Positions 43,812 to 48,947 of a DNA stretch of 64,000 nucleotides are shown piece by piece. Where the stretch lies: the NCBI GenBank assembly GCA_963743885.1, contig CAVURJ010000001.1, forward strand, positions 12,949 to 76,948. Reading direction: 5' to 3'. Each line of letters begins with the position of its first letter. Position 1 is the first letter of the stretch. The notes beneath the pieces were generated by a model. It worked only from the letters and a program-made list of their open reading frames with translations. It did not search any database and was not told where the DNA came from. This DNA comes from Candidatus Moraniibacteriota bacterium (lineage in GTDB: Bacteria > Patescibacteriota > Minisyncoccia > Moranbacterales > UBA1568). Made by a program: the position numbers and the translations under genes.

Positions 43812-43991
43812 ATGGAAATGAAAGATGCTTTTTACACTACAGAAGAACTGGCAACTAAGCTAAAGCTGAATGTCATGACGATTTACCGCTATATTAAAGC
43901 CGGAAAGTTAAAAGCCCATAAAATCGGCAAAGAGTACCGAATTGACCGGATCGAATTCGAAAGATTCATAAAAAGCACGGAAACGAAATGA
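43812..43991 (+). CDS. excisionase/MerR-like HTH DNA-binding protein (59 aa)
   Basis: MEMKDAFYTTEELATKLKLNVMTIYRYIKAGKLKAHKIGKEYRIDRIEFERFIKS. Its stop overlaps the next start (ATGA). Confidence 0.6.
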   Translation: MEMKDAFYTTEELATKLKLNVMTIYRYIKAGKLKAHKIGKEYRIDRIEFERFIKSTETK

Positions 43992-45673
43992 GCAAGAAAA
44001 CTCAGACTCAAAAAATTCTACCATGGGAAAACGGCGAGTTAGAAACTCTTCTTCAGGGATTAATTGCTCATGGGTCGGAAGTAGCAAAAGTAGATTTCAA
44101 AACAGAAATCGCAATCAACACTCCGGAACAAAAGGCTGACCTACTCAAAGACATCATTGCTATTGCTAACACCTATGACGATAACTATGACGATCATGGG
44201 TTTATTATTTATGGAGTGAAAGCAAAAACTATAACCGGCATTTCTCAAACAGAAGTTGACGTTGATAAATTTCAAAACAACATAGAACAGCTTCTCAAAA
44301 CATATATCTCCCCAATGCCACAGATATATGTAATCGGGTTTGAAACCGCCTCTGGAGAAAAATGGGGGGCTATTGTGATACCTCCACGCAATAGCAAGCC
44401 ACACATGTTTTTCAAGGAATTATCTTGCCAAGATAAATCACGTATGCGAAGGAAAGGCGAATGGTTCGTTCGCCGAGGATCAACAACCGACCCGGGCCTT
44501 CCAGAAGATCTCGCTATTATCACTCAAAAACAGATAGAGCTAAGCCTCGAGCCATTACGAGACAGTATCCGAAGTCTTCAGATTCGTATTGCCAAAACAG
44601 AAGAACAGTACAACAGCGCCTTATTCAAACTGGTTGAGCGCGCACTTTCAGCTCTTCCAGAAAGTACTCAAAGCAGGTCGGAAGAGAAAAAAGAGGAAAT
44701 TGGCTCTGATATTGAAATAGCTCTTGGAATGGATCTTCCCGCTCGCCTCAAGCAAAAACTAAAAACTCCGACGGATAAAATAGCTGAGGACCTGATAACG
44801 GAAGCGAAAAAGATTCGTGAAATGATTGATGGTCCATCTTCTGGTATCCCCTGGACACCACAACCCAACAACCCCGATGAAAACAAACGAATTATTAACG
44901 AACTTGAAGAAAAAACCCGGGCCTTCCAAATATCAGTAGCAACAATCCTTCTAAACGATCATAAGGGTATTTATACCGATGCTCTTTTGCGTGCGATAAA
45001 AATACTCGCAAGAATGGTAGATGTGCCCAATGGCATTGCCTTTAATAGGATTGGTACGGCACTAAGATACTATCCGCTCGGATTGATTATATATACGATC
45101 TTTATTTTTGGAGTTGCTGCAAATAAGCCAGAAATACTAAGAAAGGTACTTGATCTTCCGGTAAAAGGCCGTCGAGCAGGCACAAGTGCGCACATAACAG
45201 ATATTTTCTTTTTTTGGTATGAGGCAAAGGCTCTGTTCAATGACGCATTTGCTCAAAGGTGGTGCGAACCAATAGGCCAAAGGATACGGCAAGTAATGAC
45301 TGACCATGTCAGTGATTTGCTTACTGAACTTACCGAACCAGAGTATTTTTTCAGAGGCGAATTTGTTCTCGCATTAACGCGCATTGATAAACTAACCGGG
45401 GACGGCGAAAATATTGATCGCAGGGTGCCCTTGCCAGGTCTCTACCTCTACCTTAATGAAGTACACGATATCGTAACTGATTTTCTTATCGAACATCCCA
45501 GCTGGTTTGAAAAATTCTATACTCAACCAATAAGCGAAATTCTTGATACATTTGACTGCAATGCAGATAAAATGGTCTCTCCGGGTTGCTTTGGTTCAGG
45601 GCTTCATAGCCTCAAAACCTCAAAAATATACCAGGACTCGTTACAAAAAAAGACTGTGGCGGCGCCAAAATAG
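43988..45673 (+). CDS. AlbA_2/Schlafen-like N-terminal domain protein with a ~400-aa uncharacterised C-terminal region
   Basis: 561 aa. N-terminal ...GSEVAKVDFKTEIAINTPEQKADLLKDIIAIANTYDD...GFIIYGVK fits the AlbA_2 (Schlafen-group) pattern E..EfK....ia.aN..GG.i.iGv. AT-rich. Confidence 0.55.
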   Translation: MSKKTQTQKILPWENGELETLLQGLIAHGSEVAKVDFKTEIAINTPEQKADLLKDIIAIANTYDDNYDDHGFIIYGVKAKTITGISQTEVDVDKFQNNIEQLLKTYISPMPQIYVIGFETASGEKWGAIVIPPRNSKPHMFFKELSCQDKSRMRRKGEWFVRRGSTTDPGLPEDLAIITQKQIELSLEPLRDSIRSLQIRIAKTEEQYNSALFKLVERALSALPESTQSRSEEKKEEIGSDIEIALGMDLPARLKQKLKTPTDKIAEDLITEAKKIREMIDGPSSGIPWTPQPNNPDENKRIINELEEKTRAFQISVATILLNDHKGIYTDALLRAIKILARMVDVPNGIAFNRIGTALRYYPLGLIIYTIFIFGVAANKPEILRKVLDLPVKGRRAGTSAHITDIFFFWYEAKALFNDAFAQRWCEPIGQRIRQVMTDHVSDLLTELTEPEYFFRGEFVLALTRIDKLTGDGENIDRRVPLPGLYLYLNEVHDIVTDFLIEHPSWFEKFYTQPISEILDTFDCNADKMVSPGCFGSGLHSLKTSKIYQDSLQKKTVAAPK

Positions 45674-45883
45674 CGTTAGACACAAATAATCGAGCTCTGC
45701 GAGACAAAAATAGAGACAGTAGGGTAAGTTTAGTGTGGTTTTCAAAAAGCAGAAAAGGGGCCAGGTACTTTTTTTTAGGCTTCCCTTACAATTGTACTCC
45801 CTCCAACAAAAAAACACACCCTTACGGATGTGTCTTTTCTTTATGCTCCGGCGATAGGATTCGAACCTATGACCAAGTGATTA

Positions 45884-46425
45884 CATGTGATCCTCTTGTT
45901 TCCAAGACGCATGGACTATATCATCTCCATCGCACATTGCATTAGGAGTGAGGCGCTTCGACTTTTTGCAAAGCCTACTCTCTTGCGAGATAGTCTCTGA
46001 ACCTTCCCTCTCGGGCTTGGCTGCTGATTACCATAATCGCGCTGAACGATCTTAGGCTTCCAGCAATTCACCTCATTTATCACTTTCGGATTTCTCCGAA
46101 AGGCTGCGTAGTTTTTCATGCTCCTCCCTGTGGCAATTCGCGCATATCAGGGTGCATTTTTTCAGTTCTTTCTCAATCCGCTCCCAACTTCTTGTCAGGC
46201 CATCTTGAGATATACCGAAATCTTTCCTTCCATCAATATGATGGAATTCAAGAGCACCGAAACAGCGATTATACCCACAGCGGGAGCATTTTCCGCCTTT
46301 GTATTCGATAGCGCGCAGTCGCATCATCTTACGACGCTTTGCAACGGCCCGCTTCAAATACTCTCGACGGTCAGCATAGGTTCTTGTGTCTGGCATACAT
46401 AAATAAGTATACCACACATGTTTCC
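45884..46425 (-). other. group I (IC3-like) self-splicing intron within tRNA-Asn
   Basis: The 5' exon ends in U and the intron ends in G (omega-G, ...CACAUG|UAA...). The 3' core carries the P7/J6-7 hallmark sequences UUCAGAGACUA and GAUAUAGUCC, a P8-like hairpin CUCUCGCAAGAGAG, and a P9 hairpin GUCUUGG-AAA-CAAGAGGA. The ORF sits near the 5' end, in the P1/P2 region. Confidence 0.75.
46073..46417 (-). CDS. HNH homing endonuclease encoded inside the group I intron
   Basis: 114 aa. CSRCGY...FHHIDG...CANCH, an HNH motif with two CxxC pairs. GTG start is 6 nt after the 5' splice site; an internal Met (MPDTR) is the alternative. Confidence 0.7.
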   Translation of the reverse strand: MWYTYLCMPDTRTYADRREYLKRAVAKRRKMMRLRAIEYKGGKCSRCGYNRCFGALEFHHIDGRKDFGISQDGLTRSWERIEKELKKCTLICANCHREEHEKLRSLSEKSESDK

Positions 46426-46618
46426 ACAGTCACCTGCTCTACCACTGAGCTACGCCGGAATATTCTGTTGTCAAATCGCCCTTTTGGACGATGGCGTCAT
46501 TGTACGCGAAAAGAAAGAAAAAGGCAAGAGAAAGCCCCTGCTTCGCACGGAAGACAGGGGACTTGAGAGATCGGGAAACGTTACCCGAAGGCGAGAACGA
46601 CTTGACCGTGAACAGGTA

Positions 46619-46939
46619 TCAAATCGGCAGCGGCCGTTGACCGAAATTCATCGGGAAAAACGGCGCCACTTCCGGCTGATAAGCATCGTCGCCGAGGGCA
46701 GACTTGAGGACGAACGACGGCTCATCGGATACGGCGCCGGCCATGCACGCGAGCGTCTTTTCGGCTTCAACCGTATTGAGCTTCTGAAGCGCGTATCCGG
46801 TATGGACGATCACATAGTCACCGACCCTGATACCGTCAACCAATGCGAGTGAAACCTCTTTCTGCACGCCATCCATGTCGACGATGGCGCCACCGCCGGC
46901 CGTCAGACTGGCTACTTTCACAGGTATTGCGAGACACAT
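46619..46939 (-). CDS. hypC: [NiFe] hydrogenase maturation factor HypC/HybG family
   Basis: 106 aa. Hallmark N-terminus MCLAIP, then ...VDGIRVGDYVIVHTGYA. Confidence 0.8.
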   Translation of the reverse strand: MCLAIPVKVASLTAGGGAIVDMDGVQKEVSLALVDGIRVGDYVIVHTGYALQKLNTVEAEKTLACMAGAVSDEPSFVLKSALGDDAYQPEVAPFFPMNFGQRPLPI

Positions 46940-47033
46940 GATGTGCTCCTTTTCGTAAGAACTACAGGGAAAATACCCTTCTGAAGCTAGTATATCAAAT
47001 CCCCTGTTTTTCCGATATACTATGAAAAGTCCT

Positions 47034-47059
47034 GGATTCCCGCCTTCGCGGGAATGACA
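47034..47059. repeat. REP/MITE-like hairpin element ggattcccg-ccttc-gcgggaatgaca
   Basis: Palindrome followed by ATGACA. Related copies lie at 47566-47592 (reverse orientation), 47603-47629 and 54204-54230. Confidence 0.6.
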
Positions 47060-47077
47060 GAAGAATAAAACTAACGA

Positions 47078-47095
47078 ATCCGCCAGCTGGCGGAT
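47078..47095. repeat. 18-bp perfect palindrome ATCCGCCAGCTGGCGGAT (second copy)
   Basis: Identical to the core of the bidirectional terminator at 13441-13471. Confidence 0.7.
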
Positions 47096-47115
47096 AAAAA
47101 GCTACAAGCTACCGT

Positions 47116-47496
47116 ATGATTATCCACATCTTTGGCAACCCGGACCTCCCCGAGGATGCTCTCCCGGTCCGGCTCATGCCACGCCTCGAAGCCGCCTTCC
47201 CAGATATCCGCTTCCGCCTGACCGACCCCAATGAGCTCGATCTGCCGAAGCCCGGCGAAGATTTCCTCGCCATCGATACGGTCGATGGACTGAAAGACGT
47301 CCGTGAGATCGGCGTCGATGAGATCGCGGCACAGAAAGCCCGCTCCACCGCCCATGACTACGACTTCGCTTCCTGGCTCCTCCTCGCACAGAAGCTCCGT
47401 CCCGGGCTCCATGCCCACATCATCGGCATCCCCATGGAGACCGATGAAGCATCAGCTCTTGCCGAGCTCATCCCGCTGATCAAACAGCTCGACTAA
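47116..47496 (+). CDS. hydrogenase maturation endopeptidase (HycI/HybD/HoxW family)
   Basis: 126 aa. Family pattern IFGNPDLPED (GN...DD-like metal-ligand region)...LAIDTVDG...THDYDFASWL...IIGIPME, with spacing consistent with the Asp/Asp/His Ni-binding triad. Confidence 0.55.
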   Translation: MIIHIFGNPDLPEDALPVRLMPRLEAAFPDIRFRLTDPNELDLPKPGEDFLAIDTVDGLKDVREIGVDEIAAQKARSTAHDYDFASWLLLAQKLRPGLHAHIIGIPMETDEASALAELIPLIKQLD

Positions 47497-47503
47497 AAGA
47501 CAA

Positions 47504-47535
47504 AGCCGCCCTCCGATGTGTTGGGCGGTTTTTTC
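47504..47535 (+). terminator. rho-independent terminator after the maturation protease gene
   Basis: agccgccc-11 nt-gggcggtt followed by tttttt. Confidence 0.7.
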
Positions 47536-47565
47536 ATGTGCTTTGAATTACGAAACCCTTTTTTC

Positions 47566-47629
47566 TGTCATTCCGGCCTCCGAGCCGGAATCTAGAAGAA
47601 CTGGATCCCGGGTCAAGCCCGGGATGACA
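47566..47629. repeat. two adjacent REP/MITE-like hairpin elements, one in reverse and one in forward orientation
   Basis: tgtcattccggc-ctccga-gccggaatc (47566-47592), then ggatcccggg-tcaa-gcccgggatgaca (47603-47629). Confidence 0.6.
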
Positions 47630-47645
47630 AAGATAAACTAGGTTA

Positions 47646-48947
47646 CTATATCTCTCTCAGCTTGAGCTTGAGGAAATGCGAAGCGCAGCTCATGCACGGA
47701 TCATAAGCACGGATGATCTTCTCGCACTCGAGCGAAAGTGCATCATGATCCATCGAAAGATTCTCCTGGATGAACTTGCCGAGGTCGGCCTCGATTGTGA
47801 TCTGGTTCTGACCGGTCGGAACAATCACCTCGCCGCGAAGCACTACGCCCTTCTCATCGGTCTCATACTTGTGATAGAGCGTACCGCGCGGCGCTTCGAC
47901 GACGCCGACGCAGACCGTCGCCTTGGGCACGACATGCTGGAGCGGCTCCTTGACGAATGTCCACTTCGAAAGAATGTCCAACGCCTCATCCACGCTATGA
48001 AGCATCGCGATCGCCTGGGCGAGATTGTTGTGATAGACATCGTGCGATGGGAACTTCTTGAGCGCCTCTGCGGCATCACGACGGGTGTCTGGATGAAGCG
48101 TCTCTTGTGAGAGATTGATGCGCGCGAGCGCGCCCACGCGATACGCCTGACCATCAAACTTGTAACCGGACGCTTCCGAATACGGGATAACGACACGCTC
48201 GAGATGGTCGCGATAACCGCTCTCATCAGCCACTTTTCCGTTCATATCCCAGAGCTCGCCTTCGAAATAGGAAAACGGATTGGCCTTGAGCGCGATGTAG
48301 TTGGTCTCGCGCACCAGCGAGAATGGGCAGTTCATGAAGATATCGATGGCACGAAGCACCGCCGGACGGATTTCCTTGAGCTCTTCGATCGAGTGTTTCA
48401 TCTCCTCCGCCTCCGGCACGTGCGCGAAACCGCCCGGCATAAGAAACGGCGCATGCACGCTCCGGCCGCCAGCCAAGATCGCTAGATGATTGCCAGCTCC
48501 CTTGATCTCAAAGGCGTCATGAAGTACCTGGTGCTCGGCCGGGTCGCTCTCATCAAACTCAAGGAGCGAATCCTTGCCGTACATATCCGGCATCACGAAC
48601 ATATACAGATGGAGCGCGTGGTCGCGGAGGATGAGACCATGGTACGTGAGGGCACGGAGCGCCTTGGTCTGTTCGGTCGGTACGAGGCCGAAACCTTTCT
48701 CGATCGCCTCGATGCTTGCCATGAGATGCGCATTGGAACAGGTGCCGCAGATACGGGAAAGAAGCTGCGGGATGGCCATGATTGGCTTGCCGACCATCGC
48801 CTGCGTGAAGAAACGCTTGTACTCATTGATAGCGAACTGCACGGATTCTACCTTGCCGTCGCTTATGAGCACGTCGAGACCGGCCGAGCCTTCGATCTTG
48901 GTGATCTCCTTGATGCTGAACCTGCTGTGATCAGATACCTGGTGCAT
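47646..48947 (-). CDS. [NiFe] hydrogenase large subunit (cytoplasmic group 3-like)
   Basis: 433 aa. N-terminal Ni-binding motif RICGTCSNAH. C-terminal motif DPCMSCASH. Confidence 0.9.
   Translation of the reverse strand: MHQVSDHSRFSIKEITKIEGSAGLDVLISDGKVESVQFAINEYKRFFTQAMVGKPIMAIPQLLSRICGTCSNAHLMASIEAIEKGFGLVPTEQTKALRALTYHGLILRDHALHLYMFVMPDMYGKDSLLEFDESDPAEHQVLHDAFEIKGAGNHLAILAGGRSVHAPFLMPGGFAHVPEAEEMKHSIEELKEIRPAVLRAIDIFMNCPFSLVRETNYIALKANPFSYFEGELWDMNGKVADESGYRDHLERVVIPYSEASGYKFDGQAYRVGALARINLSQETLHPDTRRDAAEALKKFPSHDVYHNNLAQAIAMLHSVDEALDILSKWTFVKEPLQHVVPKATVCVGVVEAPRGTLYHKYETDEKGVVLRGEVIVPTGQNQITIEADLGKFIQENLSMDHDALSLECEKIIRAYDPCMSCASHFLKLKLREI

Follow-up and report, generated by a model that had tools for sequence, protein, structure and literature searches.

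A tRNA-Asn(GUU) gene split between positions 35 and 36 by an IA-like group I intron with a predicted HNH endonuclease gene in a Moranbacteria-like Patescibacterium

The split tRNA-Asn gene

On the minus strand of a 64-kb stretch of bacterial DNA (contig CAVURJ010000001.1; the whole stretch is referred to below as the window), we found a transfer RNA (tRNA) gene, tRNA-Asn(GUU), that is present as two halves separated by 542 nucleotides (nt), the whole gene extending over 45846-46459. The 5' half, located at 46459-46426 and 34 nt long, comprises standard positions 1-35 and reads UCCGGCGUAGCUCAGUGGUAGAGCAGGUGACUGU; it ends in ...GACUGU, with U35 as the -1 nucleotide. Positions 36-73 make up the 3' half, which lies at 45883-45846, has 38 nt and reads UAAUCACUUGGUCAUAGGUUCGAAUCCUAUCGCCGGAG, i.e. 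UAAUCAC...GGAG, with G73 as the discriminator and without an encoded CCA end. When joined in silico at the predicted 35/36 junction, ...GGUGACUGU|UAAUCACU... (CUGU|UAAUCAC), the exons yield a molecule of 72 nt which ARAGORN calls tRNA-Asn(GTT) with a canonical cloverleaf. On the unspliced DNA, ARAGORN with introns allowed independently arrived at tRNA-Asn (gtt) i(35,542). The coordinates, the division into two halves and the 542-nt gap that a first-pass annotation had read from the letters of this DNA are exact, and the textbook cloverleaf it expected on joining agrees with the ARAGORN call on the spliced exons. Its placement of the insertion between positions 35 and 36 is borne out by the intron-aware call and by helix P1 (see below), which puts a G.U pair at U35. 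The 5' exon indeed ends in U and the intron in G.

With default settings ARAGORN reported zero tRNAs across the entire window, and no further tRNA was detected in the window with either setting (default or introns allowed). The tRNA body carries U1-A72 and G73, which are traits of bacterial tRNA-Asn and not of tRNA-Thr. Global identity is non-discriminating in this respect, the spliced tRNA agreeing with E. coli tRNA-Asn at 52 and with E. coli tRNA-Thr at 53 of 73 positions. The identity of the host tRNA was judged instead by identity elements, by the rule that the intron terminates in G and by the P1 pairing.

The group I ribozyme

The intervening 542 nt (45884-46425, minus strand; start GGAAAC, end ...CACAUG with the terminal G at 45884) are a group I intron. 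The Rfam model RF00028 (group I intron) matches 45892-46127 on the minus strand over its full length (model positions 1-253) with 84.7 bits (E = 4.1e-20) against a gathering score of 50 bits, and it is the sole above-threshold Rfam match in the window. The group I assignment made in the first-pass annotation thus stands on a significant covariance match, and the P7 strands as well as the P8 and P9 hairpins that it had named could all be located in the sequence and the helix map.

The helix map was drawn manually, using the sequence and its Rfam alignment, and covariation was assessed in a set of 80 distinct "mini-introns", each of which joins the exon tail to the final 330 intron nt and the beginning of the 3' exon. 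The internal guide sequence GCAGCC (46102-46107) forms the 3' strand of P1 and pairs with GACUGU of the exon, with a G.U pair at U35 and a mismatch between A31 and C. It was the alignment of homologues that settled the position of the guide, since the search for the longest complement was confounded by a conserved P4'/P6 motif, GCAGCCAA. The P1 pairs U35.G, G34-C, U33-A and C32-G are invariant wherever the residues are aligned (76-77 of the 80 sequences), whereas at the fifth pair 55 sequences have G-C and 20, the window among them, an AxC mismatch. The invariance of P1, with its G.U at U35, fixes the 5' splice site after U35.

The P2 hairpin, UUUCGG-AGAAAU-CCGAAA(G) at 46083-46101, follows from the Rfam alignment and the helix map; it is canonically paired in 92% of cases across the set, with double changes at 6 of 6 pairs. 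The 5' strand of P3 (46074-46069) is followed by P4 (46065-46060 with 46027-46022), which encloses the P5 hairpin, the segment covering 46022-46074; P3 is paired to 92.5% and P4 to 99.8%, with compensatory changes at 5 of 6 P4 pairs. The P6/P6a hairpin (46002-46020) shows 94% pairing and compensatory changes at all 5 pairs. The joining segment J6/7 together with the 5' strand of P7 (CAGAGACUA) occupies 45991-45999; the sequence at 45999-45990 reads CAGAGACUAU. P7 itself, the guanosine-binding helix, is formed by 45995-45991 with 45918-45914 and is paired to 99.8%, compared with 2-42% in controls with slid partners. Relative to RF00028, an insertion of 33 nt separates P7 from the 3' strand of P3; it folds into two GCAA-capped hairpins, P7.1 (UCUC-GCAA-GAGA) and P7.2 (GGCUUU-GCAA-AAAGUC) at 45960-45990, of which P7.1 is paired to 88.5% and P7.2 to 70%, the latter with 6 of 6 compensatory pairs. 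The region 45913-45955 then contains, according to the Rfam alignment, the helix map and covariation, the 3' strand of P3 (45955-45950), the P8 hairpin (45948-45925; 94% pairing, double changes at 4 of 4 pairs) and the 3' strand of P7, AUAGUCC (45919-45913). The last element is the P9 hairpin, UCUUG-GAAA-CAAGA (45894-45907), with 89% pairing and 5 of 5 compensatory pairs. Pairing in the slid-partner controls was 2-60% over the helices as a whole, the short P7.1 reaching values of up to about 80%. As a whole, the map shows the P3-P9 core of a group I intron with its P3/P7 pseudoknot topology. P7.1 and P7.2, the hallmark of subgroup IA, mark the intron as IA-like.

The HNH open reading frame

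The P1 loop contains an open reading frame (ORF) of 107 amino acids plus stop, running from the ATG at 46396 to a TGA that ends at 46073 (minus strand; intron nt 30-353 of 542). It fills the 5' 60-65% of the intron, and both this placement and the HNH motif agree with the endonuclease frame that the first-pass annotation had assigned to the 5' two-thirds of the intron. The final 12 sense codons, together with the stop (...LRSLSEKSESDK*) overlap the guide sequence, P2 and J2/3 (46073-46110), with the UGA extending over the first two nucleotides of P3. In nearly all homologous loci the stop codon likewise lies 10-60 nt past the guide sequence. The conserved "RSLSEKSES" and "TQLP" tails of the proteins are probably a consequence of this dual role as coding sequence and ribozyme, which also implies that translation of the 3' end of the ORF and folding of P1 and P2 would be mutually exclusive on one RNA molecule.

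Judged from its sequence, the ORF product is an HNH (beta-beta-alpha-metal) endonuclease. The family shares the motif CxxC...HH...CxNCH...H, in which C37, C40, H52, H53, C85, N87, C88 and H89 are invariant and H93 is nearly so; the pattern provides two CxxC pairs for zinc binding and the catalytic His, Asn and His residues. Among the close relatives, 27 of 35 match the Pfam family PF01844 at E <= 0.01 (best 7.5e-6), and the family profile finds, among solved structures, the HNH domain of a group II intron maturase (8.7e-5), followed by McrA (0.016). An AlphaFold2 model with a pLDDT (predicted local distance difference test) score of 83.6 has strands at residues 49-53 and 81-85 and a helix at 86-105; HNH nucleases make up about 26 of the 30 best Foldseek matches in the PDB (the Cas9 HNH domain, Cap5, T4 endonuclease VII, ZRANB3 and Gme-HNH). 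For codons 1-95, the part upstream of the ribozyme overlap, the median ratio of nonsynonymous to synonymous substitution rates (dN/dS) between close relatives is 0.07 (range 0.02-0.13, at dS values of 0.8-2), which indicates strong purifying selection on the protein. Its most likely role is that of a homing endonuclease that cuts or nicks tRNA-Asn genes lacking the intron; we assign this role because of the protein's family, its strict tie to one site and the purifying selection.

Relatives and distribution

Relatives of the ORF with a length of about 107 amino acids fall into more than 1,700 protein clusters, and a scan of one genome per species revealed at least 564 loci, mostly in Patescibacteria, 80 of which (L001-L080) were fetched. 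A split tRNA-Asn is present in 79 of these 80 loci, in 76 cases with the ORF inside the intron; the 80th (L043) ends at a contig edge. That the same split recurs in 79 of 80 independently fetched loci indicates that the architecture seen in the window is not due to chance. An assembly artefact, which we had considered as well, is ruled out by the same architecture on 79 independent contigs.

ARAGORN with introns allowed reported a split tRNA in 79 of the 80 loci, albeit under the labels Asn(gtt), Thr(tgt/cgt), Tyr, His, Ser or Pro. On inspection the junctions are alike (...CUGU|intron...G|UAA...), and uniform re-annotation turned 79 of the 80 loci and the window into tRNA-Asn(GUU) with an intron at 35/36; all 80 annotated sequences have U1-A72, G73 and a terminal intron G. 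The HNH-bearing form also occurs on contigs labelled Omnitrophota, Elusimicrobia, Nitrospira, Limisphaerales, Planctomycetia, Heliobacteriaceae and "Gammaproteobacteria", although several labels of the kind "TPA_asm uncultured ..." look doubtful. Altogether, this form appears much commoner than the published 4 of 333 tRNA introns would suggest.

In three loci a free-standing HNH homologue adjoins a tRNA-Asn(GUU) gene with a short, ORF-less 35/36 intron, which measures 344 nt in L040 (locus span 941-1827), 312 nt in L052 (1492-2288) and 193 nt in L079 (1501-2140). L052 has a perfect TTGACA/TATAAT promoter between the HNH gene and the tRNA. No ghost or duplicated 5' exon was seen upstream of the HNH genes in these three loci. 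Their arrangement is reminiscent of collaborative homing, or of an intermediate stage at which an endonuclease invades an intron.

Longer introns, of 627-630 nt, are found in L001, L002 and L005, the Moranbacteria loci whose HNH proteins are the most similar. In one of them (L001:1438-2137, 627-nt intron) the RF00028 gathering score was not reached; an additional insert of some 85 nt is probably present in its core.

Relation to published tRNA introns

The first-pass annotation had regarded an ORF-bearing intron between positions 35 and 36 of tRNA-Asn as unusual. This view has to be given up, as a catalogue of 2020 already contains the class and experimental work of 2025-26 has characterised it, HNH-bearing members included. 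Williams (bioRxiv 2020, 10.1101/2020.01.27.920355) listed 5,292 bacterial tRNA genes split by group I introns and extended the four classical types to 21. By the account of Nakagawa et al. (PMC13011429), who credit that work, these include the class "Asn.4Ug" and its occasional mislabel "Thr.2Ug". The study of Nakagawa et al. itself appeared on bioRxiv in July 2025 (10.1101/2025.07.03.662931) and in mSystems in January 2026 (PMC13011429). In 95 complete Patescibacteria genomes they found 35/36 introns in 15 tRNA-Asn(GUU) and 3 tRNA-Asp genes, and they described the same ARAGORN and tFind mis-calls as Thr with an intron at 33/34 (PMC13011429). Of 28 introns at 35/36 they assigned 25 to subgroup IA, and they reported HNH (PF01844) endonuclease genes in four Patescibacteria tRNA-Asn introns (PMC13011429). 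For tRNA-Asn and tRNA-Asp 35/36 introns they showed in vitro self-splicing that depends on guanosine triphosphate (GTP), sequenced the ligated tRNA and included a terminal G-to-C control (PMC13011429). The window element is therefore a further member of a described and experimentally validated class, and not a discovery.

These Patescibacteria introns share with the window the host tRNA, the insertion site, the phylum and an IA-type core with P7.1 and P7.2; they fall into the same blind spot of ARAGORN and tRNAscan, and some members carry the same HNH (PF01844) gene. The window intron is closely related to that of a member in Table S3, GCA_016699425.1 (class Paceibacteria), whose HNH protein is identical at 87 of 107 residues (81%). 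The 5' exons of the two genes are identical, the first 365 nt of the introns have 78.5% nucleotide identity, and in both the ORF runs through GCAGCC-UUUCGGAGAAAUCCGA. The introns differ in length (542 nt in the window vs 574 nt) and stem from different genomes, but nothing is different in kind. For the complete genome GCA_016699425.1, the tRNA-Asn counts are 0 by tRNAscan-SE, 1 by ARAGORN and 1 by tFind (the column order of the table being inferred from its alphabetical pattern), so that the split gene is the sole copy there. An intron validated in vitro (GCA_016700035.1) is ORF-less and only 234 nt long, its core being about 73% identical to that of the window over 99 aligned columns. By analogy with such relatives, we infer guanosine-dependent self-splicing for the window copy as well.

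The classical bacterial tRNA introns reside in tRNA-Leu(UAA) at 34/35 (cyanobacteria and plastids), in tRNA-fMet at 33/34, in Azoarcus tRNA-Ile at 36/37 and in Agrobacterium tRNA-Arg(CCU) at 36/37. In common with them, the window intron belongs to the self-splicing group I class, interrupts the anticodon loop of a bacterial tRNA, has U at -1 opposite G in P1 and terminates in G. Whereas the classical introns are of subgroup IC3, mostly ORF-less and 200-300 nt long, the window intron, inserted at 35/36, is IA-like and has an endonuclease gene. A group I intron with an ORF in the anticodon loop of a bacterial tRNA is represented by the Synechocystis tRNA-fMet intron, whose endonuclease, I-Ssp6803I, targets the intron-less tRNA gene. 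That system differs from the window in the endonuclease fold (PD-(D/E)XK vs HNH), the host tRNA, the insertion position and the intron subgroup; PD-(D/E)XK genes are found in tRNA-fMet introns (PMC13011429). The combination of an IA-type ribozyme and an HNH-family, typically nicking endonuclease in one mobile unit is shared with phage introns, the enzymes being I-HmuI of SPO1, I-TwoI of Twort and I-PfoP3I of cyanophage Pf-WMP3 (PMC3428280). The phage introns, however, interrupt protein-coding genes and encode larger endonucleases with extra DNA-binding domains, in contrast to the minimal 107-residue HNH protein within a cellular tRNA gene described here.

Genomic context and transcription signals

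The surroundings of the split gene are those of an ordinary chromosome, with murJ, a ClpP-like protease gene, a gene for a Schlafen/AlbA_2 protein, hypC, the gene for the large subunit of NiFe-hydrogenase, rpoD and dnaG as neighbours. The direct flanks are the gene for the 561-residue Schlafen/AlbA_2-domain protein (43988-45673, plus strand) on one side and hypC with the NiFe-hydrogenase large-subunit gene (46619-48947, minus strand) on the other. Close relatives of RpoD that bear a name below the level of "bacterium" are all Candidatus Moranbacteria/Moraniibacteriota (Patescibacteria, or Candidate Phyla Radiation), and by its sequences the host is a Moranbacteria-like Patescibacterium.

A sigma-70-like promoter of the pre-tRNA is suggested by a consensus match (TTGCCT, 17 nt, TACAAT; 46499-46527, minus strand) about 40 nt upstream of tRNA position 1. 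Seven nt past the 3' end of the tRNA, an intrinsic terminator-like hairpin is followed by a U-run (45808-45839, minus strand). Our consensus scan for promoters and terminators did not list this hairpin, which is visible by eye and was confirmed by RNAfold (-17.4 kcal/mol).

Proposed mechanism

Our overall interpretation, in which we place high confidence, is that this tRNA-Asn(GUU) gene is functional and is interrupted in its anticodon, between U35 and U36, by a mobile IA-type group I intron. The pre-tRNA would be transcribed from its own promoter up to its own terminator. The guide GCAGC(C), about 320 nt into the intron, would pair with the exon sequence ...(A)CUGU to form P1 across a loop of 318 nt that holds the ORF, and the U35.G wobble would define the 5' splice site. 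Upon folding of the P3-P9 core including P7.1 and P7.2, exogenous guanosine would attack after U35; the terminal intron G (45884) would then occupy the P7 site, and ligation of the exons would restore the anticodon loop CU-GUU-AA. As no P10 pairing is evident, it is probably the anticodon stem that holds the exons in line. The HNH protein, in turn, is proposed to cut or nick intron-less tRNA-Asn genes around CUGU|UAA, after which the intron would spread by repair. It is plausible from the sequence data that decoding of Asn codons in this organism depends on splicing.

Some observations weigh against such a scheme. Splicing of the window copy is supported by sequence, and the in vitro data come from its relatives. 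The fifth P1 pair is the A31xC mismatch, though 20 of the 80 homologues have it too, and no evident P10 pairing was found in the window intron. The search for a second tRNA-Asn spans a 64-kb window of the genome. As to the endonuclease, the window protein scores 20.4 bits with PF01844 (E = 5.7e-4), just below the Pfam gathering cutoff of 21.4 bits; the Foldseek comparison with the PDB gave no significant E-value (0.27 or worse) and is used here in a supporting role; and we found no assayed endonuclease of this HNH family in the literature.

Alternative explanations

Protein-dependent tRNA splicing of the archaeal type was considered and rejected. The intron position deserves closer attention, since shifting both splice sites by 2 nt would join ACU to UGUAAUC and turn the host into a tRNA-Thr(UGU) with an intron at 33/34. 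This register likewise results in a 7-nt anticodon loop, ARAGORN chooses it for about half of the homologous loci, and tFind also calls Thr for several published cases. In the window, however, it is impossible, because the intron would then end in A (...AUCACA|UGUAA) and break the terminal-G rule. Moreover, the guide GCAGC pairs its A with U33 and its G with U35, the wobble falling on U35 wherever the residues are aligned (76 of 80), and U1-A72 together with G73 in 80 of 80 tRNA bodies argues against tRNA-Thr. Among the published cases, the ligated product sequenced by Nakagawa et al. has the 35/36 junction, and spliced tRNAs match intron-less tRNA-Asn at 84-100% identity (BLAST). We therefore regard a tRNA-Thr host as hardly credible and attribute the "Thr" calls in relatives to the 2-nt ambiguity of the register. 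It is also very unlikely, in our estimation, that the locus is a decaying relic, i.e. a tRNA-Asn pseudogene whose intron no longer splices while a functional intron-less copy resides elsewhere in the genome. One could point to the visible genome of 64 kb, to the AxC mismatch in P1 and to the lack of an obvious P10. Yet one homologue in four has the mismatch too, the core helices are all intact with an Rfam score well above threshold, the ORF is intact with a dN/dS of about 0.07, and promoter-like and terminator-like signals lie on either side of the gene. In the published census, Patescibacteria genomes nearly always have a single tRNA-Asn gene, the split gene of the closest published relative is the sole one, and intron-bearing and intron-less copies of the same anticodon rarely coexist (Nakagawa et al., PMC13011429).

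A further question is whether the ORF has been domesticated and, instead of encoding a homing endonuclease, is kept by host need, e.g. as a maturase that helps splicing or as another cellular nuclease. Purifying selection at a dN/dS of about 0.07 in a probably fixed, single-copy tRNA gene exceeds what the classical homing cycle predicts after fixation, and the ORF overlaps P1 and P2. On the other hand, relatives in the same intron class that lack an ORF self-splice in vitro with no protein present, and HNH proteins are not known as maturases, which disfavours such a role. The HNH family is spread over many lineages, yet always at the same tRNA-Asn site, and free-standing HNH copies adjoin intron-bearing tRNA-Asn genes; both observations fit ongoing mobility. 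Domestication thus seems improbable to us, and we favour a mobile intron within a functional tRNA-Asn gene.

Expression of the endonuclease

Upstream of the ORF, the consensus scan disclosed a candidate internal promoter at 46406-46433 (minus strand), consisting of a -35-like GTGACT, a 16-nt spacer and an extended -10 element, TG-G-TATACT, that ends 9 nt before the ATG. The -10-like box (TGGTATACT) lies at 46414-46406. In the pairing proposed by the scan, which applies to the clade of the window, the -35-like GTGACT is itself a segment of the tRNA anticodon arm (nt 28-33). Of 72 loci, 42 have a strict TATAAT-like box, in many cases TGnTATAAT, that ends 6 or 9 nt upstream of the start codon. 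By comparison, 500 shuffles of the leaders gave 9.3 such loci on average and at most 19, and ORF-internal control windows gave 1; these counts are to be read in view of loci that are related by descent and leaders with 70% A+T. A Shine-Dalgarno core was found in 0 of the 72 loci. A -10 box close to the ATG without a Shine-Dalgarno sequence is the standard signature of leaderless genes and thus suggests an internal promoter for the endonuclease. We tentatively raise the possibility that the protein may be made from a leaderless or near-leaderless messenger RNA initiated within the intron, and not from the pre-tRNA or the excised intron, although we are inclined to doubt it. If this were true, then, in combination with the wide spread, the purifying selection and the free-standing copies, we would be dealing with an actively mobile element that has its own expression module, which differs from the rare and mostly immobile picture drawn in the 2026 paper.

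Implications

For genome annotation, the case is instructive in that default ARAGORN misses the tRNA-Asn of the window, and intron-aware tools often call the homologues tRNA-Thr. Owing to such misses and mis-calls, inferences on genome completeness and codon usage in Patescibacteria can be wrong. What we add to the published class is modest. It comprises an explicit helix map, the placement of the ORF in the P1 loop with its overlap of the guide sequence and P2, the purifying selection on the endonuclease, and a spread far beyond the published survey of complete genomes. The free-standing HNH copies and the leaderless-promoter signature are leads that bear on how these introns move and how their genes are expressed. 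For the biology of the organism, the finding means that a bacterium with a reduced genome probably relies on RNA-catalysed splicing to read its Asn codons, a point already made and tested in the literature.

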